Source: an uncultured Gaiellales bacterium
GTDB lineage: Bacteria; Actinomycetota; Thermoleophilia; BMS3ABIN01
Length of the DNA stretch: 64,000 bases
Direction of reading: 5' to 3'
Assembly (NCBI GenBank): GCA_964497425.1
Contig: CAZCCR010000006.1
Coordinates: 13,306 to 77,305, forward strand
Under the pieces are notes generated by a model. It searched no databases, was not told where the DNA came from, and worked only from the letters and a program-made list of their open reading frames with translations. Position numbers and translations under genes: made by a program. Below are positions 32,276-48,396 of this stretch, piece after piece (position 1 is the first letter of the stretch; the number at the start of each line of letters is the position of its first letter).

Positions 32276-32352
32276 TGGCGCCCCGGGAAGGATTCGAACC
32301 TTCGACCTACCGCTTAGGAGGCGGTCGCTCTGATCCCCTGAGCTACCGGGGC
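32276..32352 (-). tRNA. tRNA-Arg (anticodon CCT)
   Basis: Minus strand GCCCCGGTAGCTCAGGGGATCAGAGCGACCGCCT-CCT-AAGCGGTAGGTCGAAGGTTCGAATCCTTCCCGGGGCGCCA: 7-bp acceptor stem, TTCGAA T-loop, encoded CCA, 77 nt. Confidence 0.96.
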
Positions 32353-35738: not shown

Positions 35739-36575
35739 TCACCGTGGACGGTCGTGCGCGTGCCCGTGGTCGTCCAGGTGGCTATGGGGATGGATATGCT
35801 CCACCCCATCTTCCTCATGTCTGTGGGGATGGTCGTGGACCAGGTTCGAGCTGAGCAGCAGTCCCCGGTCCTCAAGCACCGCCGCCGGAGCCCCTTCCCC
35901 CGCCAGGCGGTGGTCCTCTCCCAGCACCAGCACCCGGTCGGCGATCTCCGCCGCCAGGCGCAGGTCCTGGGTGGCGGTGACTATCGTCTTGCCGGCTGCT
36001 GCCAGCTGGTTCAACAGCCTCTCCAGGAAACTGGCGGTCTTGGGGTCCAGCCCGGCTGTCGGTTCGTCCAGGAGCAGAACATCCGGGTTTATCGCCAGCA
36101 CCGACGCCAGGGCCACCTTCTTCTTCTCGCCGCCGCTCAGCTCATAGGGAGCCCTGTCCTCGAGCCGTGTCAATCCCAGGATATGCAGGCTGTCGGCTAC
36201 GCGCCGCCGGACCTCCTCCGGCGGCAGCCCGAGGTGCAACGGTCCGAAAGCCACTTCCTCGCCGACACTGGGCGAGAACAGCTGGACATCGGAGTTCTGG
36301 AACAGGAAGCCGACCCGCTGGCGGAAGGAGCGGGACAGTCCTTCATCCTGGAGCGATTCTGCGGTGATCTCGCGGCCGAAGGCCCGGACCGTCCCTTTGT
36401 CGGGGAATATCAGTCCGTCCAGAAGCTTCAGCAGCGTGGATTTGCCGGATCCATTGGCTCCCAGCAGAACCAGACGTTCGCCGGCATATGCGGAAAGGCT
36501 GACGCCGTCCAGCGCCACCGTCTCCCGATAGCGATAGTGGATGTCCACGGCTTCCATGACGGGCGCATCAGGCAA
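35739..36575 (-). CDS. cbiO: ECF transporter ATPase (CbiO/NikO) with His-rich tail
   Basis: GANGSGKST; LSGGEKKKV; LLDEPT; 11 His in the C-terminal ~32 aa. Start TTG 36575 after GGAGGTGA, or ATG 36557. Confidence 0.9.
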   Translation of the reverse strand: MPDAPVMEAVDIHYRYRETVALDGVSLSAYAGERLVLLGANGSGKSTLLKLLDGLIFPDKGTVRAFGREITAESLQDEGLSRSFRQRVGFLFQNSDVQLFSPSVGEEVAFGPLHLGLPPEEVRRRVADSLHILGLTRLEDRAPYELSGGEKKKVALASVLAINPDVLLLDEPTAGLDPKTASFLERLLNQLAAAGKTIVTATQDLRLAAEIADRVLVLGEDHRLAGEGAPAAVLEDRGLLLSSNLVHDHPHRHEEDGVEHIHPHSHLDDHGHAHDRPR

Positions 36576-37581
36576 GGAGGCGATCACCTCCGGCGGCCAG
36601 CAGGGCGGCGGCAATGAGCCCCGCCCCCAGCCAGATATCGCGGGCGGAGAGGGTGAACCGGCGCAACACCAGCGGCTCTCCATCGTAACCACGGCTGACC
36701 ATGGCCGAGTATATTCCGTCGCTCATGGCGCGGGACTTGCCCAGCAGTGCTCCCATGCCGGCGGCGGCGAAGCGCCGCTCTTCGGCGGCCCGGACGCCGT
36801 CTCCGCCGCGGCTGCGCCGGGCCATGTACATGTCCGTTGCCAACCCCAGGAGAAGGTGGATGTAGCGGTATGTCATGGACAGGATGAGGATGAAGACCCG
36901 CGGCACGAAGAAGACGCGCAGTGCCTTCAACAGTTCGGACCAGCGGGTGGTCACCGCCAGCAGCACCGCCAGCGACACGGAGACGGCGACGCGCAGCACC
37001 AGCAGCGCCGCGCCGTACAGGCCCTGCCGGGTGATGGCCAGCGTGTCCCCCAGCGACCAGGGGCCAAGATGGACTTCACGCCCGAAGTCCCAGAGGACCA
37101 GGAGGGGGTCCCCGGGCCTGACCACGTTGAAGATGCTGGGAATGACGACGACACCGGTGAAGATGGGGATGAACAGCCATACCCTTCCCAGGAAAAAGCC
37201 CGTGGGAAGGCGGGAAGCCGCTGCCAGGGCGAGGGTCAGCAGGTACAGCGCCGCCAGGGTGAGAGGGTGGCGGACCAGTGAGGCGGTCAACAGCAGTGCC
37301 AGCAGCGACACAAGCTTGAGGCGGGGGTCCATCCTCTGCAACAGTCCTTCGCGTGCCGCCAGCCGTTCCGAGAAGAGGGCCGACTGCAGGGCGCGGGAGA
37401 TGCCGGTTATGGTGCGCTCGATGGCCCCGGGGCGGCGGCGCCGTCCCGACGGGGTGAGCCCGCCGGGCCGGCTGTCGATGGCGCAGGCGCTGGTTGCACC
37501 CGTCCCGGGGCCGCCTCTCCCATCTCGGGGCGCTTCTTCTCCCAGCAGCCAGGCGGGGAGTGTGGGTGCACCACTGCTCAT
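36568..37581 (-). CDS. cbiQ: ECF transporter T component (CbiQ/NikQ)
   Basis: LQRMDPRLKL; TTRWSELLKALR; MTYRYI; AMVSRGY. ATG 37581 overlaps the upstream stop as ATGA. Confidence 0.9.
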   Translation of the reverse strand: MSSGAPTLPAWLLGEEAPRDGRGGPGTGATSACAIDSRPGGLTPSGRRRRPGAIERTITGISRALQSALFSERLAAREGLLQRMDPRLKLVSLLALLLTASLVRHPLTLAALYLLTLALAAASRLPTGFFLGRVWLFIPIFTGVVVIPSIFNVVRPGDPLLVLWDFGREVHLGPWSLGDTLAITRQGLYGAALLVLRVAVSVSLAVLLAVTTRWSELLKALRVFFVPRVFILILSMTYRYIHLLLGLATDMYMARRSRGGDGVRAAEERRFAAAGMGALLGKSRAMSDGIYSAMVSRGYDGEPLVLRRFTLSARDIWLGAGLIAAALLAAGGDRLLA

Positions 37582-38636
37582 GGCAGCTTCCCGCCGGTCT
37601 GTCCGCCACGCCTCGACCTCCTGGCGAGAAGGCGCGCGATCAAAAGTGATGCGGAGACGGCCAGCCCCAGTCCCAGGGCCGCTGACAGGATATATCCGGG
37701 AGTCGAAGCCCAGAGGCCTTCCCCGCCGCCCGGCAGGGCATAATCGGGCAATATGCCGCTCCACCAGCCGGCGAAACGTTCCATGCCGGCGGGGATGAAA
37801 CCCAGTTCCTGGCCTATCTCTTCCGTGCTCCATTCTCCCCAGGCGGAGCCGCCGGCCAGGAGTCCCAGGGGGACGAAGATCGCCATCAACAGCAGTGTCA
37901 CGAACAGGGGTCTGAGCCTGTAGCCCTTTCCCGGGCCCTGTCCGCCCCCCTCTTCCCCGGCGGCCGGGAGGTAAAGGAGTCCCGGGTCCGTGCGCTCTAT
38001 CCAGATCACGGCCAGGGCGGTGACCACCGCCTCCAGGGGGCCGATCACGCTGAGATGGGCCAGCATCATGGCGGGGACCGCCTGGTCGAGGCCATAGGGT
38101 GAGTAGAGGGCGGCGCCGCCGGCGGTGTGGAACAGCCCCGGCTGGATGCCTATCTCGACGGCGGTCAGCAGCGCCGCCGCGTTCACGCCGGCGTAGGCGC
38201 CGGCGGCGCCGCCCAGCCAGCGCCGCGGCGAGTCCGCCGCGGCGCCCCGCGCCACCAGGCTGTAGACCATGTATCCGGTGAGGGGCAGGACAAAAGCCAT
38301 GTTGAAACAGTTGGCGCCGAGGGCGAGGATACCGCCGTCACCGAAGAAGAGCGCCTGGATGACCAGGGCCACGGTGACGGAGATGACCGCCGCCCAGGGG
38401 CCGACGAAAAGGGCGACCAGGGTGCCGCCGGCGATGTGACCGGTAGTGCCGCCGGGTACGGGCACGTTGAACATCATGATGACGAAGGTGAAAGCGGCGC
38501 CGACGGCGATGAGGGGGGCGCGGCGGTCCCTGAGGCCGCGTCTGACCCGCGTGCCGGCATAATACCAGGCCGGGACCATCATCGCCCATAGTCCCCCGGC
38601 GGTCTGGGGGCTGATATAACCATCGGGTATATGCAT
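37578..38636 (-). CDS. cbiM: ECF substrate component, CbiM/NikM fused to an N-type (PDGLE-like) domain
   Basis: N-terminal MHIPDG; GGTTGH; LFFGDGG..ALGANCFN; C-terminal AWGEW...LPDYALPG domain. Confidence 0.92.
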   Translation of the reverse strand: MHIPDGYISPQTAGGLWAMMVPAWYYAGTRVRRGLRDRRAPLIAVGAAFTFVIMMFNVPVPGGTTGHIAGGTLVALFVGPWAAVISVTVALVIQALFFGDGGILALGANCFNMAFVLPLTGYMVYSLVARGAAADSPRRWLGGAAGAYAGVNAAALLTAVEIGIQPGLFHTAGGAALYSPYGLDQAVPAMMLAHLSVIGPLEAVVTALAVIWIERTDPGLLYLPAAGEEGGGQGPGKGYRLRPLFVTLLLMAIFVPLGLLAGGSAWGEWSTEEIGQELGFIPAGMERFAGWWSGILPDYALPGGGEGLWASTPGYILSAALGLGLAVSASLLIARLLARRSRRGGQTGGKLP

Positions 38637-38819
38637 GTTCCATACTCCTTTCCGGCCCTTCAGAATGAATGGCCATCGGCCGTCTGTCCCTGCGCGGCCT
38701 GCCGGCCGCGCGCGGGCCTTCGAGGCCCGGAGTACTTCATGCTTCCCGCGTTGGCTGGGTCCGGTCCGGCCGCCGCCTGGGGCCGGATGATCGATCCGGG
38801 TACACCCGGTAATACAGGC

Positions 38820-39005
38820 TCAACGCGTGAGGAACACCTTGTGCTCCAGTAGTCTCAGTTCCTTGATACGTGCCTCCACTATCTGTTGCCGGCCCAGCAG
38901 GTCGGTCAGGATCAGGCGGTCGCCTTCGGGGGTGATGGTGGCGACATCCTCCATCACTTTCTCTTTCTCCCCGTCACTGAGCAGGAAGACTGTGAGTTCA
39001 CACAT
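38820..39005 (-). CDS. cooT: CooT-family nickel-binding protein
   Basis: MCELTVFL...VMEDVATI...LTDLLG...RIKELRLLEHKV; Cys2 and late His; GGAGGTGA RBS. Confidence 0.85.
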   Translation of the reverse strand: MCELTVFLLSDGEKEKVMEDVATITPEGDRLILTDLLGRQQIVEARIKELRLLEHKVFLTR

Positions 39006-39516
39006 CAGCGTTCACCTCCCCGCCCGGCTCGACCATCTCTTTCACTTTTTCCAGAGCTTCTTCCATCATATGGGGCAGAGGCTGTTTCGCCGTAGCTATG
39101 AATTCCATCCCCGGCTGGCTCATGGGCAGCAGCACCTTGCGCGCCGGCGCCGAGGCGATGGCTTCGGCCATCCCCGGGGTCAGCTCCCCCATGTAGGAGT
39201 TGGGGATAACGGCGGCGGCGGGCGCTAGGATGACGTCCGCCTCCCCGATGGACACGCGGATCGCGTTCTCGCCGGTGGCACCGCGGCTGGCGCGGGCCTT
39301 CATCATCCTGGCGGTGGCGGCCGCGTTGGTGCCGAAGGCGACTATCTCCGTATCCGCCGACAGTTCACGGCGCAGCTGGCTGATGATCTGGTGGCCGATG
39401 TTGCCACCCATCCCGTCTATGACAGCTATGGTCTTGCCGCTGATGACATGCCTCCGGTTCCTTTGGTCCTCAGCTCCGTCGTTCCAGCTCCGTCGTTCGG
39501 GCCGGGGAGTGCTCAT
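38998..39516 (-). CDS. DUF3842-family protein (start uncertain)
   Basis: IAVIDGMGGNIG; GTNAAATARMMKA; GATGENAI; GELTPGMAEAI. Nearest in-frame ATG is at 39516; the frame stays open to 39735. Confidence 0.8.
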   Translation of the reverse strand: MSTPRPERRSWNDGAEDQRNRRHVISGKTIAVIDGMGGNIGHQIISQLRRELSADTEIVAFGTNAAATARMMKARASRGATGENAIRVSIGEADVILAPAAAVIPNSYMGELTPGMAEAIASAPARKVLLPMSQPGMEFIATAKQPLPHMMEEALEKVKEMVEPGGEVNADV

Positions 39517-39718
39517 TCGGGCCGGCGCGCACTCACACGGGCCGTCAGGCGCTCGCCCTGTCTCCGCACCCGGAACGCACGCTGTCCGTACGATCGGCGT
39601 GCACGACCGGCGCGCCACCCGGCACCCGCACCCGGAACAACCCTGTTCGTACGACCCGCACCATCCGGTCTCCGTACCCGGAACACACCCTCTCCGCACA
39701 ACCGGCGCGCCCACCCGG
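39471..39718. repeat. Mosaic of direct repeats
   Basis: Exact tandem CAGCTCCGTCGTTC x2 (39471-39498); three ~37-bp imperfect units with core CCCGGAAC (39569, 39631, 39677); ACCGGCGCGCC(C)ACCCGG x2 (39606, 39701). Confidence 0.7.
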
Positions 39719-40060
39719 TCCTCCGCACGGCTCATACCCTATCCGACGCTCCGCGTGCAGCCGCGGCTCGCCGGTAAAAAAACCCCGAAAGTCCGCAAAG
39801 CCAGGCAGGCTTTCCCGGACCTTCGAGGCCGGTGCTACATTCTTCAAACACAATGATAAAGGCGTTTCCCAAGAGCCTGCAGCTCTTCCCAGAGGAGGCT
39901 TCGGCCTCCTGCCTCATAAACTAGCCCAGACGGCGGGGCCAGTCAAGTGAAACGGGCTTCCGTCCGTTAAAGGTAGTTCAGGCCGTTAAAGGTTATCCAG
40001 GGATTACCGATAGGCCTGATGCACGCTGAATGCCGTCAGGGGGCGGGCGGAGCATGCCGG

Positions 40061-40107
40061 GCGGCTCATTGGGGAGGGGTATTGGCGGCTCAATGGGGAG
40101 GGGTATT
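40061..40107 (+). repeat. 23-bp tandem duplication containing a Shine-Dalgarno-like sequence
   Basis: GCGGCTCATTGGGGAGGGGTATT followed by GCGGCTCAATGGGGAGGGGTATT (1 mismatch). Confidence 0.75.
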
Positions 40108-42412
40108 GTTTCCCGGAGTCCTGAATTCAAGGCCTGAAGAAGATTTCAGGTCCAAAAGGGAGAAGATACACTGGCCGGTTTTCATGATGGCCGGGCTGGG
40201 GGTGTTCATCAACGCCCTCTATTTCGGTCTTGAGCTGCTCACCGGGCCTGAAGAGTTCCTCTCCCATTTTGCCGCGAACCTGCCGGAGCACCTTTTCATC
40301 GCCTCCCTGATAGTCATCTTTCCCCTGGTCGCCTATCTCTCCCACCATGTCGTCGCCGGTTACCGCCTCAGTGAATATTCGCGACGCCTGGAGCTGGAGA
40401 TGAAGACGAGGAACAAGCAGCTCATCGACCTGATGAACTTCAACGAGAACATCATGAGCAGCGTCAACGACCTGATTTTCGTCATAGGCTCCGACGGCCG
40501 TTTCCAGTTCGTCGGCGGCAACTGTTCCGACATGCTCGGATGCGAACCGGCGGCGCTGGTGGGGCATCAGTTCATCGAACTGGTAGCGCCTGGTTCCGTA
40601 GCCGTCGCTGTCAACAACTTCGAGAGCGTCCTGCGCGGGATGGAAGTGCAGCCCTATGAGGTCGAGATCAGGACCGGGGAGGGAGAGACCAGGTTCATCG
40701 AGATCTCCAGCACCGCATATCACGAGAACGAGACCGTATCGGCACAGGTGGGTGTAGCCCGCGACGTCACCGCGCGAAAGAAGCTGGAGCAGCACGTAGT
40801 CGAGCGGAACAGGGAGCTTGCGGCTCTCAACGCGGTCGCCACCGCCGTCGGCCATTCTCTGGAACTCAGCGAGGTGCTGGGAGCGGCACTGGAACAGGTA
40901 GCGGCGCTGCTGCGTGTTGAGGACGCTTGCATATATGTTTATGACACCTCAAGCCGCGAACTCGAGTTGAGGGCCTGGAAGGGAGCCTGCGTCCGGAACA
41001 AGGAGGAGGCCGGCCGCCTGGCGCTGGGGGAGACCGCCTTCGGCAAGGCGGCGGAGAAGGGGTCGCCGATCCTGATCAACCGGCGCGACGACCCGGATGA
41101 GGTCAAACGGCTGTCATGTGATGAGGAGGTGGCCGCCATCGCCGCCATCCCCATGAGATACAGCGGCAGGCTGGTGGGTGTGCTCGGTCTCGCCAGCGGC
41201 GAAGCGGACCATTTCTCGCGAGCCGACATCGACCTGATGCGCGTGGTTTCCAGCCAGATAGCCATGGCGATGGATAATGCCATGCTTTACCAGGAGGCCC
41301 AGAGCAAGGCCAGGGAGCTGGCGGCGCGCAACGCCGACCTGGCGCTGGCCACGGACGAGGTGAGCAAGCTCATCGACGTGGCCGAGAAGGAGAGGAGCTT
41401 CGCCGTCCGTTCCAACAACCCCAACCTGGTCAAATGCTGGGAGATCAAGGGATGCACCCAGCACAACTGCCCTTCCTTCAAATCGGAGAACCTCCGCTGC
41501 TGGCAGGTCGCCGGGACCCATTGCGGAGGGGAGGTCCAGGGGGTCTTCGCCCAGAAATTCGGCAGGTGCGAGAAATGTGAGGTGTACCGCATGGCGCGGC
41601 CGGACATGCTCAGCGAGATCGGCGAGGCCTTCAACAACATGATGGCCATGCTGGAGCAGAAGGTGGAAGAACAGCGGCAACTGCAGGAGGAGCTTGTCCA
41701 GTCATCCAAGCTGGCGGCCATCGGCGAACTGGCCGCCAACATCGCCCACGAGATAAACAACCCGCTCACCGGCGTCCTCGGACACGCGGTGATGATGTCG
41801 CGCCAGGCTCCCGAGGGCGATCCCTTCCGGGAGAACCTGCGTGTCATCGAGAGTGAGACCATCCGGGCCCGGGACATCGTGCGCAACCTCCTGGACTTCT
41901 CCCGCAAGGAGGGTCTGAAACCCCGGAAGGTCGCCATCGCCGATGTCCTTGATGACACGCTGCCCCTGCTGCGGAAGCAGGCAGACCTGATCAATGTGGA
42001 GATAGTGCAGGATTATGCCAGGGATGTCCCTATGGTCTACGTAGATGTCAACCAGATGAAACAGATATTCATCAACATCCTCAACAACGCTCTCTTCGCC
42101 ATGCCGGATGGTGGCAGGCTGGTGATCACCATCCGGTCGGAGAAGCCCGACAGCCGGCGCCCCTGGGTCGAAGTATCCTTCCGCGACACGGGAGCGGGTA
42201 TATCCGAGGAGAACATGGACAGGATCTTCGACCCCTTCTTCACCAGCAAGGAAGCCGGGGAGGGAACGGGACTGGGCCTGTCGATATCACGGAGGATAGT
42301 CGAGGAGCATGGCGGCATGCTGGAGGCCGAGAGCCGCCTGGGTGAGGGCTCAACCTTCACGGTCAAACTGCCGACAGCCAATATTGCAAAAGATTTCAGG
42401 CACGTAGCCTGA
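40106..42412 (+). CDS. Sensor histidine kinase (2 TM, PAS, GAF, HAMP-like with inserted two-CW domain, HisKA, HATPase)
   Basis: H-box IAHEINNPL; QIFINILNNA; DTGAGI; GTGLGL; Cys cluster CWEIKGC..NC..RCWQVAGTHC..RCEKC. Start TTG 40106, or ATG 40019 per the track. Confidence 0.93.
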   Translation: MFPGVLNSRPEEDFRSKREKIHWPVFMMAGLGVFINALYFGLELLTGPEEFLSHFAANLPEHLFIASLIVIFPLVAYLSHHVVAGYRLSEYSRRLELEMKTRNKQLIDLMNFNENIMSSVNDLIFVIGSDGRFQFVGGNCSDMLGCEPAALVGHQFIELVAPGSVAVAVNNFESVLRGMEVQPYEVEIRTGEGETRFIEISSTAYHENETVSAQVGVARDVTARKKLEQHVVERNRELAALNAVATAVGHSLELSEVLGAALEQVAALLRVEDACIYVYDTSSRELELRAWKGACVRNKEEAGRLALGETAFGKAAEKGSPILINRRDDPDEVKRLSCDEEVAAIAAIPMRYSGRLVGVLGLASGEADHFSRADIDLMRVVSSQIAMAMDNAMLYQEAQSKARELAARNADLALATDEVSKLIDVAEKERSFAVRSNNPNLVKCWEIKGCTQHNCPSFKSENLRCWQVAGTHCGGEVQGVFAQKFGRCEKCEVYRMARPDMLSEIGEAFNNMMAMLEQKVEEQRQLQEELVQSSKLAAIGELAANIAHEINNPLTGVLGHAVMMSRQAPEGDPFRENLRVIESETIRARDIVRNLLDFSRKEGLKPRKVAIADVLDDTLPLLRKQADLINVEIVQDYARDVPMVYVDVNQMKQIFINILNNALFAMPDGGRLVITIRSEKPDSRRPWVEVSFRDTGAGISEENMDRIFDPFFTSKEAGEGTGLGLSISRRIVEEHGGMLEAESRLGEGSTFTVKLPTANIAKDFRHVA

Positions 42413-42437: not shown

Positions 42438-42824
42438 ATGGGACGAAAGAACAGTGTACTCGTGGTCGATGACGAAGAAGTCATCCGTGACGTATGCGCG
42501 CAGATACTCGTCGGTGAGGGATACGATGTCACGACGGTATGCAACGGCAGGGAGGCTCTGCACGAGGTGAGCGAGCACAGCTACGATGTGGTTGTGACCG
42601 ATATCATGATGCCGGACATGTCCGGCCTGGAGCTGCTGGAAGTGATCAAGAGCACCAGCCTGGACGTGTGCACCGTCGTCATCACCGGTCTGGGCACATT
42701 CGACATGGCGACGCAGTCGGACAGGCTGGGGGCAAGGGAGTTCGTGGTCAAGCCCTTCACGCCCGACGAACTGAGCCGGGCCGTGGGCAAGGCGCTCAGC
42801 AAGCAGAAACCGCTGGCGGGCTAG
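42438..42824 (+). CDS. Single-domain response regulator
   Basis: LVVDDE; VTDIMMPDMSGLE; ITG; VKPF; no output domain. Confidence 0.93.
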   Translation: MGRKNSVLVVDDEEVIRDVCAQILVGEGYDVTTVCNGREALHEVSEHSYDVVVTDIMMPDMSGLELLEVIKSTSLDVCTVVITGLGTFDMATQSDRLGAREFVVKPFTPDELSRAVGKALSKQKPLAG

Positions 42825-43531
42825 CGGCCTCCCAACCGCAGCCGCCATACCTGCGCCATGGCCTCGAAGACTATCCTTTTCGACATCTTCGACTGCCCCT
42901 GCTGGCGGTCGCTGAAAGTGATCGGCACCTCCTTCACCCGGAAGCCCTTCTTCAGCGCCTTGTAGGTTACCTCTATCTGGAAGCCGTAACCATGGGAGGA
43001 GACGCTGTCCAGGTCCAGTTCTTCCAGCACTTCCCGGCGGAAGCATTTGAAGCCGCCGGTCAGGTCGTTCACCGGCACCCCCAGGATCCATTTGGCATAG
43101 AGGCCGCCGCCACGGCTGATCATGCGCCGGAGCAGGCCCCAGTCCTCCACGCCGCCGCCCGGAACATACCTCGATCCCAGCACCAGGTCGGCCTCATCCG
43201 CCGCCTGGAGCATGCGGGGGACATACTCCGGGTTGTGGGAGAAGTCGCAGTCCATCTCGAAGATGAGGCGGGTGTCGCTCTCCAGGGCCTTCCTGAAGCC
43301 GGCGATATAGGCTGGGCCCAGGCCCTGCTTCTCCCGCCGGTGCAGTACCGATATGTTATCGTGGTCGCGGGCCAGCCTGTCGGCGATGGCGCCGGTTCCG
43401 TCGGGGGAGCTGTCGTCGACGATGAGTATCCTGCCGTCAAGGCCATGTCGGGCGAACACCCGCTGCAACGCGGCCACGAAGCGTTCCAGGTTCTCACGCT
43501 CGTTGAATGTGGGAAGGATTATGGTGAACAT
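42821..43531 (-). CDS. ppm1: Polyprenol-monophosphomannose synthase (GT2, Ppm1/Dpm1-like)
   Basis: LPTFNERENL; VDDSSPDGTG; MDCDFSHNP; GSRYVPGG; DLTGGFKCFR; YGFQIE. Confidence 0.88.
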   Translation of the reverse strand: MFTIILPTFNERENLERFVAALQRVFARHGLDGRILIVDDSSPDGTGAIADRLARDHDNISVLHRREKQGLGPAYIAGFRKALESDTRLIFEMDCDFSHNPEYVPRMLQAADEADLVLGSRYVPGGGVEDWGLLRRMISRGGGLYAKWILGVPVNDLTGGFKCFRREVLEELDLDSVSSHGYGFQIEVTYKALKKGFRVKEVPITFSDRQQGQSKMSKRIVFEAMAQVWRLRLGGR

Positions 43532-43540
43532 CCGGCTGCC

Positions 43541-44074
43541 TCAGCGGTGACGTGATTCGTCGCGGCAGAGTGTCCTGCCGTCGACCCGGTCGGCCCGGGA
43601 CTCCATCACCGGTTCACCGCAGCCGTCGCAGCGCACCGACCGCATGATGCGGGCCTCGGCGGGCAGCTCCATGGACGTTTCCGATATATCGAAAAGCTCA
43701 TCCGTGCGAGCGGCGAGCACCCTGTCGGTCCTTTCCTTCTTGCTTGCCCCTTCAGCCTGCCTCATGAAGCCCCAGCGCAGGGAGACGCGCACCGCCCTGC
43801 CTTCGTCCCTGCGGGCGAAGGTAAAGACCTGTTTACCCCAGTCGCGGAAGTAGAGGTTGCCTTTGCCGAAGGTGGCTCCGGCCAGATATTGCACCGCGTC
43901 CACGCTGCAGCTGTCGTTCTCGACGATGGCTATCAGCTCTTCGTCGCGGGCGCGCTCCACGCCCAGCCGCCTGAGCCCGGCCAGCGTGGCGCGGTAGCCG
44001 ATGGCCAGTCCCGGGCAGAGATGCCCGTGGAACGCGGTCAGCTGTTCAAGGGTTTCCTTGTCGTCGTCCATCAT
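43541..44074 (-). CDS. fmdE: FmdE (formylmethanofuran dehydrogenase subunit E-like) protein with C-terminal finger
   Basis: FHGHLCPGLAIGYR; ENDSCSVDAVQ; TFGKGNL; CDGCGEPVME. Confidence 0.88.
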   Translation of the reverse strand: MMDDDKETLEQLTAFHGHLCPGLAIGYRATLAGLRRLGVERARDEELIAIVENDSCSVDAVQYLAGATFGKGNLYFRDWGKQVFTFARRDEGRAVRVSLRWGFMRQAEGASKKERTDRVLAARTDELFDISETSMELPAEARIMRSVRCDGCGEPVMESRADRVDGRTLCRDESRHR

Positions 44075-44173
44075 GTCCGGTTCCGGTCATGTCCGGTTCG
44101 CCTCTATCCCTGTCACGAGATTGTAACCTAAAGTCGGGGCTTTCGCTGACGGCGAGGCGGCGGCTGGGCCGGG

Positions 44174-44946
44174 TCAGGTCACCAGGCGCCGCTGCATGCT
44201 GCGTACGGCCAGTTCCGTCAGTATCAGGGTGGAGACGAGGGCCCAGACCGTTTCGGGCAGAAGGGTGCCGGAGAGGCGGTCCAGCGTCAGCGAGCGCATG
44301 ACATCGACGAAGCTGGTGAGGGGGATGACCCAGGCTACCGCCTGCACCGGCGCGGGGAAGCGGGAGACGGGGAAGAAGGTGCCACAGAGGAACTGGGCCG
44401 GCAGCACGAAGCCGGCGAAGTAGAAGTGAAAGTATTCCATCTGGGCGATACGGCTGGTGACGATGATGGCGATGGCGGCGAAGTTGAAGGCCGCGAGGAA
44501 GGTGAGCAGGGGTATCAGCAACACCATCAGGCTGTGGAAGACACCGAAGACAGCCAGAACCGACAGCACCAGTACCGAGGTCACCAGACCCCTGGTGGCG
44601 CCCCAGGCTATCTCCGCCGCCCCTACCTCGGCGGCGCTCACCGGGGTCGAGATTATCCCCTCGAACGTGTTCTGCATACGCATGCGGAAGTAGGAGCCGT
44701 AGGTGCATTCGAAGGTGGCCTGCATGATGGCGGCGATGCCGAGTATGCCGGGGGCGACGAACTCCAGGTACGGCACACCCTCCATCTCGTCGATGTAGGA
44801 GCCGATACCCAGGCCGAACACGAAGATGAAGAGGATGGGCTCGGCCAGAGCGGGGAAGACGTTGAACTTCCACAGCGCCAGGTATACCTGTGCGTTTCGC
44901 ATCCATACGCGCCCGAAGGCGGGGGTGACCGACAGGAGGCCCTCTC

Positions 44947-44950
<4 letters not shown>
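44174..44950 (-). CDS. ABC-2 exporter permease (NodJ-like)
   Basis: [12 protein letters not shown]; YLEFVAPG; FECTYGSY; QFLCGTFFP. Start ATG 44950. Confidence 0.88.
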
Positions 44951-45849
<899 letters not shown>

Positions 45850-45930
45850 CCCTGCATCATAAAGGTTCAGGGGAGCAGGTTTCCAGCCCGACAGGCTGGT
45901 TTCAGCCGTGGCGAAAGAGGGATTAAGATA

Positions 45931-48396
45931 ATGATGGGAAAAGAGGTCATGCAGGTGCCAGGAGACTTGAGAAAAATCATCATACCCATCGCAGGCATGA
46001 GTTGCGCCGCCTGCGTGGAGCGCAACCAGAAGGCGCTGAGGGATGTCCCCGGCGTGGTCAGGGCCGAGGTGAACTTCGCTACGGAGAAGGCGGCGATCGA
46101 GTACGACCCGGCAGAGACTTCCCCCGGCAGGCTGGTCGCGGCCATAGAGGATGCCGGTTATTCGGCGATCACGGACAAGGTCACCGTCCCCGTGGGTGGC
46201 ATGACCTGCGCCTCGTGCGTGGAGCATGTGGAGAAAGCCCTGCGGGCGGTGGACGGGGTCATAAGCGCTTCGGTGAACCTGGCGACGGAGAAGGCGACGG
46301 TGGAGTACGCCGCCGGCGTGGTGGCCATGGCGGACGTCAGGCGGGCCATCGAAGGGGCGGGTTATACGGTGCTGGCGACCGGGGACGAGGGGCCGGCGGG
46401 GGATGAAGACGCGGAGGCGCGCCTGCGGAGTCAGCAGTACCGCCGCCTGCAGCTGAAGGTGCTGGTGGGGGCGATCCTATCTGTCCTCGTCTTTGCCGGC
46501 AGCTTCGAATGGTTCGGCGGGTTGGGGCCGCTGAGCAACCCTTACGTGCTCTGGGCCCTGGCCACGCCGGTGCAGTTCTGGGTCGGCAGGCAGTTCTATA
46601 CCGGGGCCATCGCCGCGGCACGCCACCGTACCACCAACATGAACACGCTGGTGGCCGTGGGTTCCTCCTCGGCCTATTTCTACAGCGTGGCGGCGGTGCT
46701 CTTCCCGTCCTTCTTCGAGGCGCGGGGGCTGGGGGCGCCGGTATACTTCGATACTGCCGCCGTGATCATCACCCTCATCCTGTTCGGCCGCATGCTGGAG
46801 GCCAGGGCCAAGGGGCAGACATCGGATGCCATCAGGAAGCTGATCGGTCTCAGGCCGAAGACGGCGCGGGTCATCCGCGATGGAGAGGAAGCGGACATAC
46901 CGGTGGAGGATGTGCGCGTGGGCGACACGGTGCTGGTCAGGCCCGGGGAGAGCGTGCCTGTCGACGGCGTGGTCCTGGAGGGCGAGTCCAGCATCGACGA
47001 ATCGATGATCACCGGCGAGAGCATGCCCGTGGGAAAGCATCCCGGTGACGAGGTCATCGGCGCCACCATCAACCGGATGGGCAGCTTCAGGTTCGAGGCG
47101 GTGAGGGTGGGCAGGGACACTGCCCTGGCCAACATCATCCGTCTGGTCCAGGAGGCACAGGGCTCCAAGCCGCCCATCGCCCGCATGGCCGATGTCATCG
47201 CCAGCTACTTCGTGCCGGCCGTGTTCGCCATAGCCACGGTCACTTTCGTCATCTGGTTCGCCTTCGGGCCCGAGCCGGCTTTCACCGTGGCCCTGCTCAA
47301 CTTCGTGGCGGTGCTGATAATTGCCTGCCCCTGCGCCCTGGGCCTGGCCACGCCCACCGCCGTGATGGTGGGGACGGGCAAGGGGGCGGAAGAGGGCATC
47401 CTCATCCGGGGCGGGGACGCCCTGGAGACGGCGCACAAGCTTGACACGGTGGTGCTGGACAAGACCGGCACCCTTACCCGGGGTGAGCCTTCCCTCACCG
47501 ATGTACTCCCGCTCGGCGGGGATGAGGAGGAGGTGCTGCGGCTGGTGGCTTCGGTGGAGAGGGGTTCGGAGCATCCTTTGGGTGAGGCCATAGTCAGCGG
47601 CGCCCGCGCCCGCGGCCTGGAGCTGGCGGAGGCTTCCTCCTTCGAGGCGGTCGCCGGCCAGGGCGTGGCGGCGGAGGTGGAAGGGCATCCGGTCCTGGTG
47701 GGCAACGCCGCCATGTTCGCCGCCAGGGGTCTCGAACTGGACGGTCTGGCGCCGGCAGCCGACGGCCTTTCCCGTCAGGGGAAGACCCCCATGTTCGTAG
47801 CGGTCGATGGTCGGCCAGCCGCCGTAATCGGGGTGGCGGATACGATGAAGGATAGCTCGGGCGATGCCGTACAGAGCATGAGGCGGATGGGGCTGGAAGT
47901 GGTGATGCTCACCGGCGACAACCGGGCTACCGCTGAGGCGGTGGGCAGGGAAGCCGGGGTGGACCGGGTGCTGTCGGAAGTGCTTCCCGCCGGCAAGGCG
48001 CGCGAGGTCAGGCGGCTGCAGCAGGAGGAGAAGAAGGTGGCCATGGTCGGTGACGGTATAAACGATGCGCCGGCGCTGGCACAGGCCGACGTGGGCATAG
48101 CCATCGGCACCGGGACGGATGTGGCCATCGAGGCCGGAGACATCACCCTCATCTCCGGCGACCTCAGGGGCGTCTCCACCGCCATAGCGCTCAGCCGGCG
48201 CACCATCCAGATAATCAGGCAGAACCTCTTCTGGGCCTTCGCCTATAACACGGCGCTCATCCCCGTGGCCGCCGGGCTGCTCTATCCCTTCTTCGGCGTG
48301 ACGCTCAACCCCATGTTCGCCGCGGCCGCCATGGGGCTCTCGTCGGTGACGGTCGTCAGCAACTCCCTGCGGCTGAGGCGTTTCAGGCCGGTCTAA
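45931..48396 (+). CDS. copA: Cu(I)-translocating P1B-1 ATPase with two HMA domains
   Basis: GMSCAAC and GMTCASC; TGES; CPCALGLA; DKTGT; GDGINDAPA; YN and MGLSS. Real start near 45931-45949. Confidence 0.96.

Follow-up and report, generated by a model that had tools for sequence, protein, structure and literature searches.

A seven-cysteine two-CW knot within a conserved, probably HAMP-like module of a Gaiellales sensor histidine kinase

Introduction

Why would a sensor histidine kinase carry seven cysteines in the segment that joins its input domains to its catalytic core, and what kind of structure would hold them there? The question is raised by a kinase gene in a stretch of 64,000 nucleotides from an uncultured Gaiellales bacterium (GenBank assembly GCA_964497425.1, contig CAZCCR010000006.1, positions 13,306 to 77,305 of the forward strand); this whole stretch is referred to below as the window, and all coordinates are positions within it. 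A preliminary description had proposed that the segment is a two-CW domain inserted into a HAMP-like element, where it would serve as a metal or iron-sulfur (Fe-S) redox switch. We report that the segment is a genuine and strongly conserved member of the catalogued but uncharacterised two-CW family, and that the family model covers only the core of a larger conserved unit of about 130 residues, consisting of a long helix, an extended connector, the seven-cysteine knot and a second long helix. The topology of this unit is probably HAMP-like, and a built-in metal centre is considered below together with its alternatives.

Results

The cysteine segment belongs to the two-CW family

The longest open reading frame (ORF) of the kinase extends from an ATG at 40019 to 42412 on the plus strand (translation 40019-42409) and encodes 797 amino acids; residue numbers throughout are those of this ORF. 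The features needed to place the segment are as follows.

40106 to 42412, plus strand: sensor histidine kinase gene, likely start TTG at 40106, 768 amino acids.
40460 to 41275, plus strand: PAS (PAS_4, residues 148-254, 3.3e-10) and GAF (GAF_2, residues 281-419, 8.3e-19) input domains, by Pfam.
41435 to 41587, plus strand: two-CW knot, residues 473-523, by NF045718 match and column conservation.
41723 to 42379, plus strand: HisKA/DHp (residues 569-631, 3.5e-15) and HATPase_c (residues 676-787, 3.4e-27), by Pfam.

The Pfam domain limits place the cysteine segment between GAF and HisKA, where the preliminary description had put it. In the translation, LATDEVSKLIDVAEKERSFAVR (residues 441-462) and SNNPNLVK lead into CWEIKGC-TQHN-C-PSFKSENLR-CW-QVAGTH-C-GGEVQGVFAQKFGR-C-EK-C, and the last cysteine is followed by EVYRMARP and then DMLSEIGEAFNNMMAMLE (residues 529-546). 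The seven cysteines are C473 (codon 41435-41437), C479, C484, C494, C502, C517 and C520, and over residues 473-520 they form the pattern CW-x4-C-x4-C-x9-CW-x6-C-x14-C-x2-C, which agrees exactly with the spacing and the two CW dipeptides originally described, the earlier coordinates being correct within one base. Seven cysteines in 48 residues, compared with five in the other 720, corresponds to a binomial P of ~4e-8 per scanning window and ~3e-5 once scanning of the whole protein is counted; hence the clustering is not due to chance.

The NCBIfam model NF045718 (two_CW_domain; 80 positions, curated cutoff 35 bits) matched a 139-residue fragment with 41.4 bits (E 1.4e-10) and the 63-residue core with 44.4 bits (E 1.7e-11), confirming the proposed family identity; both CW dipeptides (C473-W474 and C494-W495) and all seven family-invariant cysteines are present. 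The sole Pfam hit on the core, DUF3624 (E 0.07-0.33), was dismissed as noise, and a search of the window for a second two-CW module found none.

Conservation was measured on 230 module copies from 224 diverse proteins. Each of the seven cysteines is kept in 222 to 229 copies (at least 96%), and R493, W495, G499, T500, E536, F538 and N539 are conserved in at least 98%. Other positions are more permissive: the second residue of the first CW dipeptide is W in 166 copies and Y in 43, the position of S486 is an optional eighth cysteine in 68 (~30%), and position 501 is not conserved (H in 100, F in 81, Y in 29). Two side observations concern the same alignment. The loop GGEVQGxFAxK (residues 505-511, 41531-41551) is highly conserved, with Q507, G508, F510, A511 and K513 found in 87-95% of copies, and is the sole part of the module for which AlphaFold2 (AF2) gave a predicted local distance difference test (pLDDT) value below 50; it could contact a cofactor, a ligand or a partner. 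Glu536 (41624-41626) lies on the output helix and is present in 229 of the 230 modules, while the same position is variable in canonical HAMP AS2; this residue could pair with the invariant R493 or act as an extra ligand.

The preliminary description had also stated that two-CW domains are uncharacterised and occur mostly in anaerobes, and both statements stood. Literature searches for the two-CW domain, NF045718, cysteine-rich HAMP inserts and seven conserved cysteines returned nothing relevant; comparison of the unit profile with PDB sequences gave nothing credible (one chance match at E 1.5), and Foldseek found no match of the module model in PDB at E ≤ 10 and only noise in BFVD. Going by the names of the sources and by a scan across species-representative genomes, family members come from metagenome-assembled genomes of groundwater, deep subsurface and sediment; the hosts are Thermoleophilia and other Actinomycetota, Nitrospirota (largely Thermodesulfovibrionia), Deferribacteres, Phycisphaerae, Deltaproteobacteria and Chloroflexota, and multiple two-CW copies per genome are common.

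A conserved unit of about 130 residues surrounds the knot

The NF045718 model spans the cysteine knot alone. The conserved unit found here also includes both flanking helices and the connector, and is larger than the catalogued domain. Its additional parts in the kinase are listed below.

41303 to 41392, plus strand: N-flank helix, residues 429-458, by AF2 and conservation, showing a/d heptad periodicity and extending the last GAF helix without a break.
41393 to 41434, plus strand: extended connector, residues 459-472, consensus xSFxVR[FY]xNPxLxK, non-helical in AF2 with pLDDT ~90.
41606 to 41701, plus strand: C-flank helix, residues 530-561, motif D-x-[IL]-x-x-[IL]-G-E-x-F-N-N-M-M-x-x-L, by hhalign and AF2, continuing into DHp helix 1.

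In the 230 copies, the conserved residues of the N-flank helix are L434, N438, L441, A444, L451 and I452, and F461, R464, N467, P468 and L470 of the connector are each conserved in 70-93%. A search with residues 425-565 found 81 relatives, distributed over four architectures, namely PAS-GAF-module-HisKA (the orthologues), HAMP-GAF-module-HisKA, module-GGDEF, and module-HisKA_3 together with hybrid kinases. In all four, the knot has the same flanks, with ...AEKxxSFxVR[FY]xNPxLxK before it and DxIxxIGExFNNMMxxLE after it.

A profile of the 135-residue unit matched at least 1,879 protein clusters (50% identity), mostly histidine kinases, at E ≤ 1e-3; 786 of them pass at 1e-10 and 245 at 1e-30, and in the 150 best matches nearly the full profile is covered, flanks included, within host proteins of 149 to 1,503 amino acids. 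Among 75 sampled members, HATPase_c was found in 57, HisKA in 47, a receiver in 26, PAS in ~25, canonical HAMP in 14 and GGDEF in 5. Five proteins carry tandem modules about 126 residues apart, such that the C helix of the first module runs into the N helix of the second, and in about 14 proteins a canonical HAMP lies no more than 30 amino acids upstream of the module. One of the tandem proteins (P0083) ends in a C-terminal GGDEF domain.

The C-terminal half of the unit resembles HAMP

In HAMP domains, AS1 is a helix of about 16 residues, often with a proline at its start, and the connector has about 14 residues, begins G-x-[LF]-x-x-[RP] and packs along the bundle. The claim of the preliminary description that both flanks of the knot are HAMP-like was supported in part, by the C flank and the start of the connector, and covariation favoured parallel helices; the N flank gave no AS1 signal, and Pfam HAMP did not match the kinase, as detailed in the Discussion. 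The C flank PDMLSEIGEAFNNMM aligned without gaps to the AS2 signature DEIGeLaraFNrM, and the general signature DE[IL]Gx[LI]xxxFNxM is found here as D529-M-L-S-E-I-G-E-A-F-N-N-M. When compared by hhalign with 53 canonical HAMPs drawn from the same protein set, the C flank alone reached a probability of 94.4% (E 8.8e-8), and the knot-excised N flank, connector and C flank together reached up to 95.8% (E 8e-9) over 35 columns comprising the end of AS1, the connector and AS2. The rise on adding the connector comes from alignment of SFxVR (S460-F-A-V-R in this kinase) to GdLxxR, and a narrower HAMP set gave 62-75%. Weak Pfam HAMP matches appeared in relatives from which the knot had been excised, 4 of 17 in one set and 14 of 63 in another, the best (E 1.1e-4) being below threshold; HAMP is nonetheless the sole recurrent Pfam family on these excised sequences, any other occurring in at most 2 of 63. 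With the knot removed, the connector measures 13+3 residues, near HAMP length. The sequence comparisons thus give good support for a HAMP-like C half.

The orientation of the two helices was addressed by mean-field direct coupling analysis (DCA) of 192 non-redundant modules (effective number, Neff, ~112). The ten strongest couplings between N flank and C flank lie at offsets of 81-96 columns, with a standard deviation of 5.1 against a null of 11.1 (P = 0.003); the top pairs fall on a parallel diagonal at an offset of ~88-96, and antiparallel clustering was absent in every setting. Parallel clustering had P below 0.05 in 12 of 16 parameter and method variants, and P was 0.002-0.06 in most settings. 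The strongest coupling in the whole unit joins Q496, just after the second CW, to N540 in the FNNM motif, and the next ones join H501, as well as V497 and E518, to E456 near the end of the N helix; these knot-helix couplings (columns 69-113 and 74-29) are compatible with both orientations. As for the direction of the connector, no trend emerged from covariation (Spearman P 0.16-0.95).

The distance from F538 to the phospho-acceptor histidine provides a further view of the C helix. It takes discrete values, 37, 44 or 51 residues in one class of proteins and 39 or 46 in another, and is 39 in the present kinase, where the acceptor is His577 (codon 41747-41749). The spacings within each class differ by heptad steps, as predicted for a continuous coiled coil. 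The site of the knot also has a precedent, since in a poly-HAMP structure (AskA-like) the connector of one HAMP carries an insertion at its C-terminal end (PMC13446029).

Structure prediction, one of the checks that had been suggested, recovered the order helix, extended connector, knot, helix when the unit was modelled separately, and served less well for the full-length kinase, the model of which was poor over the module. The AF2 model of the unit (pLDDT 85, predicted template modelling score 0.76) has a helix at positions 2-31 (pLDDT 89-94), an extended, non-beta connector at 32-45 and a helix at 103-134; the knot contains three short helices only, besides its low-confidence loop. In the full-length model, a single helix spans residues 401-466, from GAF into the N flank, and another spans 528-596, from the C flank through His577.

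Gene start, membrane anchoring and genomic neighbourhood

Kinase relatives have 765-770 amino acids, begin with MLPGILN or MLLPGILN, and align from residue 30 onward; because of this, and of the GGGGAGGGG just upstream, TTG 40106 is the likely start. The region also contains a 24-nucleotide tandem duplication in perfect register (40060-40107; GGCGGCTCA[T/A]TGGGGAGGGGTATT, 96% identical), which doubles the Shine-Dalgarno-like GGGGAGGGG, results in two in-frame TTG codons, at 40082 and 40106, and is translated in the long ORF as WGGVLAAQ/WGGVLFPG. Beyond the start lies one more feature of the kinase.

40175 to 40357, plus strand: two predicted transmembrane helices, residues 53-73 and 91-113, with an outer loop of ~17 residues (Kyte-Doolittle scan).

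The full-length AF2 model places helices 40-74 and 88-147 around these segments, and the kinase looks membrane-anchored, with no large external sensor.

The genes on either side of the kinase are those that had been described, a nickel operon divergent from it and a stand-alone receiver beside it.

42438 to 42824, plus strand: stand-alone receiver of 128 amino acids, 25 nucleotides past the kinase (Pfam Response_reg 1e-28), with no output domain.
35739 to 39735, minus strand: divergent operon of DUF3842, CooT, CbiM (with PDGLE), CbiQ and an ABC ATPase (Pfam).

The translated receiver has its catalytic residues D11, D12, D55, T83 and K105. By its Pfam content, the divergent operon is an uptake system for nickel or cobalt of the energy-coupling factor (ECF) type with a nickel chaperone-like protein; we treat it as context, and it does not imply that kinase and operon form one system. 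Six orthologous loci, with module identities of 64-85%, keep DUF3842-CooT-CbiMQO divergent from kinase and receiver, followed by GT2, FmdE, usually an ABC-2 exporter (absent in two) and an HMA P-type ATPase. It is to be noted, nonetheless, that the entire 16-kb block is syntenic in relatives and that its flanking housekeeping genes are equally conserved, so that linkage to the nickel genes does not constitute independent evidence. Moreover, the paralogue type with the HAMP-GAF architecture is an orphan among infB/rbfA/truB/ribF/rpsO/pnp and has no receiver. The nickel link was rejected as functional evidence on these two grounds, and nickel as the signal of the kinase is a matter of speculation.

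Some further observations were made on the surrounding DNA. After the receiver, the conserved neighbourhood (42821-48396) has a metal theme: besides a GT2 glycosyltransferase and an ABC-2 exporter, it encodes an HMA-domain P-type ATPase and an FmdE that bears a C4 zinc finger of the DksA/TraR type. The divergent intergenic region (39444-40105) is ~660 bp long, compared with ~315-420 bp in relatives, and contains direct repeats, namely a 67-nucleotide pair 108 nucleotides apart (39557-39731), a 14-nucleotide tandem pair (39471-39498) and a 20-nucleotide tandem pair (39493-39532). The DUF3842 ORF, of 245 amino acids, has a 100-residue N-terminal extension; as relatives (144-149 amino acids) lack it, the extension is probably non-coding. 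A scan of the window with Rfam detected no riboswitch, its sole match being a tRNA gene at 32279-32352 on the minus strand.

Discussion

A proposed transmitter with a sensor built in

Taken together, these results lead us to assign a probability of roughly 0.5 to the proposal that the two-CW module combines a HAMP-like transmitter and a sensor in one piece, its knot holding a metal centre and docked on both helices. The helices at residues 429-458 and 530-561 would pack parallel to each other, in the kinase dimer most likely forming a four-helix bundle, and would be joined by the connector (residues 459-472), with the knot of about 50 residues spliced in at the connector's distal end. Most likely, the knot would cage a metal centre, an Fe-S cluster being favoured over zinc, and would dock on both helices through the covarying contacts Q496-N540 and H501-E456. 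A changed state of the centre, be it oxidation, loss or ligand binding, would alter the packing of the C helix; as this helix is predicted to run unbroken into DHp helix 1, with His577 39 residues on, the change in packing would set the balance between autokinase and phosphatase. Input from the knot would thereby be integrated with the PAS and GAF signals that the N helix brings in, and the phosphoryl group would be passed to the adjacent single-domain receiver.

A number of observations weigh against this proposal. Pfam HAMP (PF00672, gathering score 25 bits) was unmatched on the whole kinase (E ≤ 1), on the 139-residue fragment (E ≤ 10) and on the knot-excised kinase, and formal membership of the HAMP family is therefore not found; the Pfam HAMPs of the relatives are separate, canonical domains located elsewhere in the protein. 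The N flank alone scored an hhalign probability of 3.3% against AS1, is about twice the length of AS1 (a conserved helix of ~28 residues) and lacks the AS1 proline. A reversed-sequence control of the hhalign comparison reached 60%, which means that coiled-coil composition inflates these scores. The band-mean covariation test of parallel versus antiparallel packing gave P 0.42 and 0.77, neither of them significant, and the coupling statistic that was significant had been picked post hoc, from top pairs, at an Neff of just ~112; the support for parallel packing of the helices is for these reasons moderate. The full-length AF2 model has a pLDDT below 50 over residues 456-546 and is of use for helix continuity alone. 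Lastly, the knot has just one CxxC pair, and Foldseek matched it to no ferredoxin-like fold.

The alternatives to the proposed built-in metal sensor

The knot probably holds a metal or Fe-S cofactor. Should it bind a metal centre, we lean only slightly to Fe-S over zinc: the seven invariant cysteines with an optional eighth, the run C-x5-C-x4-C-P, the single CxxC pair, the lack of a conserved histidine and the anoxic hosts all point to Fe-S, while the small size of the knot and the absence of an Fe-S fold match point to zinc. In its boldest form, which we regard as tentative and less likely than not, the transmitter would itself be the sensor, a HAMP-type parallel bundle the connector of which has turned into a seven-cysteine cage for an Fe-S centre, so that the redox state or integrity of the cluster would directly drive helix packing and rotation at the entry to DHp. 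A cluster of the 3Fe or 4Fe type could then be completed by the eighth cysteine (the CP-C position, in ~30% of members) or by the invariant Glu536. Of a different nature, and in our estimate rather doubtful, would be a structural zinc knot, in which the seven cysteines hold one or two zinc ions and rigidify the insertion as a brace, dimer contact or docking surface, without any sensing, and the helices relay PAS and GAF signals only. Small cysteine-rich domains of ~50 residues most often bind zinc, the CxxC pair (C517, C520) is of the appropriate kind, the model contains no ferredoxin-like fold and matched no Fe-S protein, and most family members already possess other sensor domains (PAS, GAF, Cache). 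Yet the CxxC knuckle is single, the histidine at position 501 is found in fewer than half of the copies, and seven invariant ligands is an odd number for zinc sites; nearly every host comes from an anoxic habitat, a role in signalling is suggested by the fixed place of the knot within the transmitter in over 1,800 clusters, and the Fe-S sensor motif of Rrf2/IscR, C-x5-C-x5-C, is similar to the C-x5-C-x4-C-P of the knot.

A metal-free thiol switch, whose reversible disulfides would form under oxidants, reshape the knot and move the output helix, appears highly improbable. Thiol switches are known in sensor kinases such as ArcB, which has a different architecture, and the module does offer many close and invariant cysteines in a cytoplasmic signalling protein of anaerobes; but the odd number of cysteines does not suit disulfide pairing, a loop of 50 residues with little secondary structure is unlikely to stay so invariant if it holds no metal, and the invariant Trp, Arg and Gly beside the cysteines suggest a packed cofactor cage. 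A module unrelated to HAMP is also unlikely, though less so; here the knot would sit in an independent domain embedded in the coiled coil, for example at the tip of a helical hairpin, and the FNxM motif would be convergent. The missing Pfam match, the N flank without AS1 similarity and the length of the flanking helices (about four heptads each, versus about two in HAMP) fit such a domain, as does the position of the knot at least 46 residues past the last transmembrane helix in membrane-bound members, which means that the N-flank helix ends well beyond the end of a canonical AS1. Against it stand the profile match of AS2 and connector at 94-96%, the recurrence of HAMP as the sole Pfam family on excised sequences, covariation that favours the parallel arrangement with no antiparallel signal, and the near-HAMP length of the connector freed of its knot.

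Relation to known signalling modules

A HAMP-like transmitter with a metal centre would share features with several known systems. With the HAMPs of Af1503, Tsr, NarQ and EnvZ it has in common the AS2-like DxIxxIGExFNNMMxxL, the connector start [GS]-F-x-x-R, a place directly before DHp with heptad-phased spacing, and covariation that favours a parallel arrangement; it differs from them in helices about twice as long, an N helix that is not AS1-like, the failure of the Pfam model to match, a 50-residue cysteine knot in place of a plain linker, and an invariant E536 where HAMP varies. Its tandem and HAMP-adjacent copies resemble poly-HAMP arrays (Aer2, AskA-like). Among Fe-S proteins, NreB (with a PAS-bound [4Fe-4S]) and AirS ([2Fe-2S]) are sensor kinases, and FNR, Wbl and NsrR/IscR are regulators, all of them cytoplasmic, which sense oxygen, nitric oxide (NO) or redox state through cysteine-ligated clusters, with cysteine spacings of a type similar to the knot (C-x5-C, C-x2-C). 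In proteins of the NreB, AirS and FNR type, however, the cluster occupies a dedicated input domain with three or four cysteines, whereas here seven lie inside the transmitter helices; searches with Pfam and with Foldseek against PDB found no relation of sequence or fold between the module and Fe-S sensor proteins. The CZB domain (TlpD/DgcZ), a four-helix bundle with a zinc site of three histidines and one cysteine, usually located at the C- or N-terminus, likewise modulates the output of signalling proteins by way of a metal site within a helical bundle, but is without a cysteine knot and bears no sequence relation to the module.

Significance

The kinase gene itself is ordinary, one more member of its family, and its adjacency to nickel uptake genes is not yet evidence of nickel sensing; the significance of the locus is moderate, and that of the two-CW family is higher. 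This large family comprises at least 1,879 clusters (50% identity) and occurs in several phyla from anoxic habitats, yet is entirely unstudied; biochemical characterisation of one member would thus carry over to the annotation of thousands of kinases, hybrid kinases and cyclases. The unit of about 130 residues, with its defined boundaries, invariant residues and candidate contacts (Q496-N540, H501-E456 and R493/E536), provides an experimental handle for this purpose. The usual view of HAMP and similar coiled-coil linkers is that they passively convert the signal of the sensor for the output; a cofactor in this module would mean that such a converter can also take in a signal of its own, and if that cofactor is an Fe-S cluster caged in the transmitter, the two-CW proteins, at least 1,879 clusters of them, would represent a new and widespread class of cytoplasmic redox, oxygen or NO input in anaerobes.

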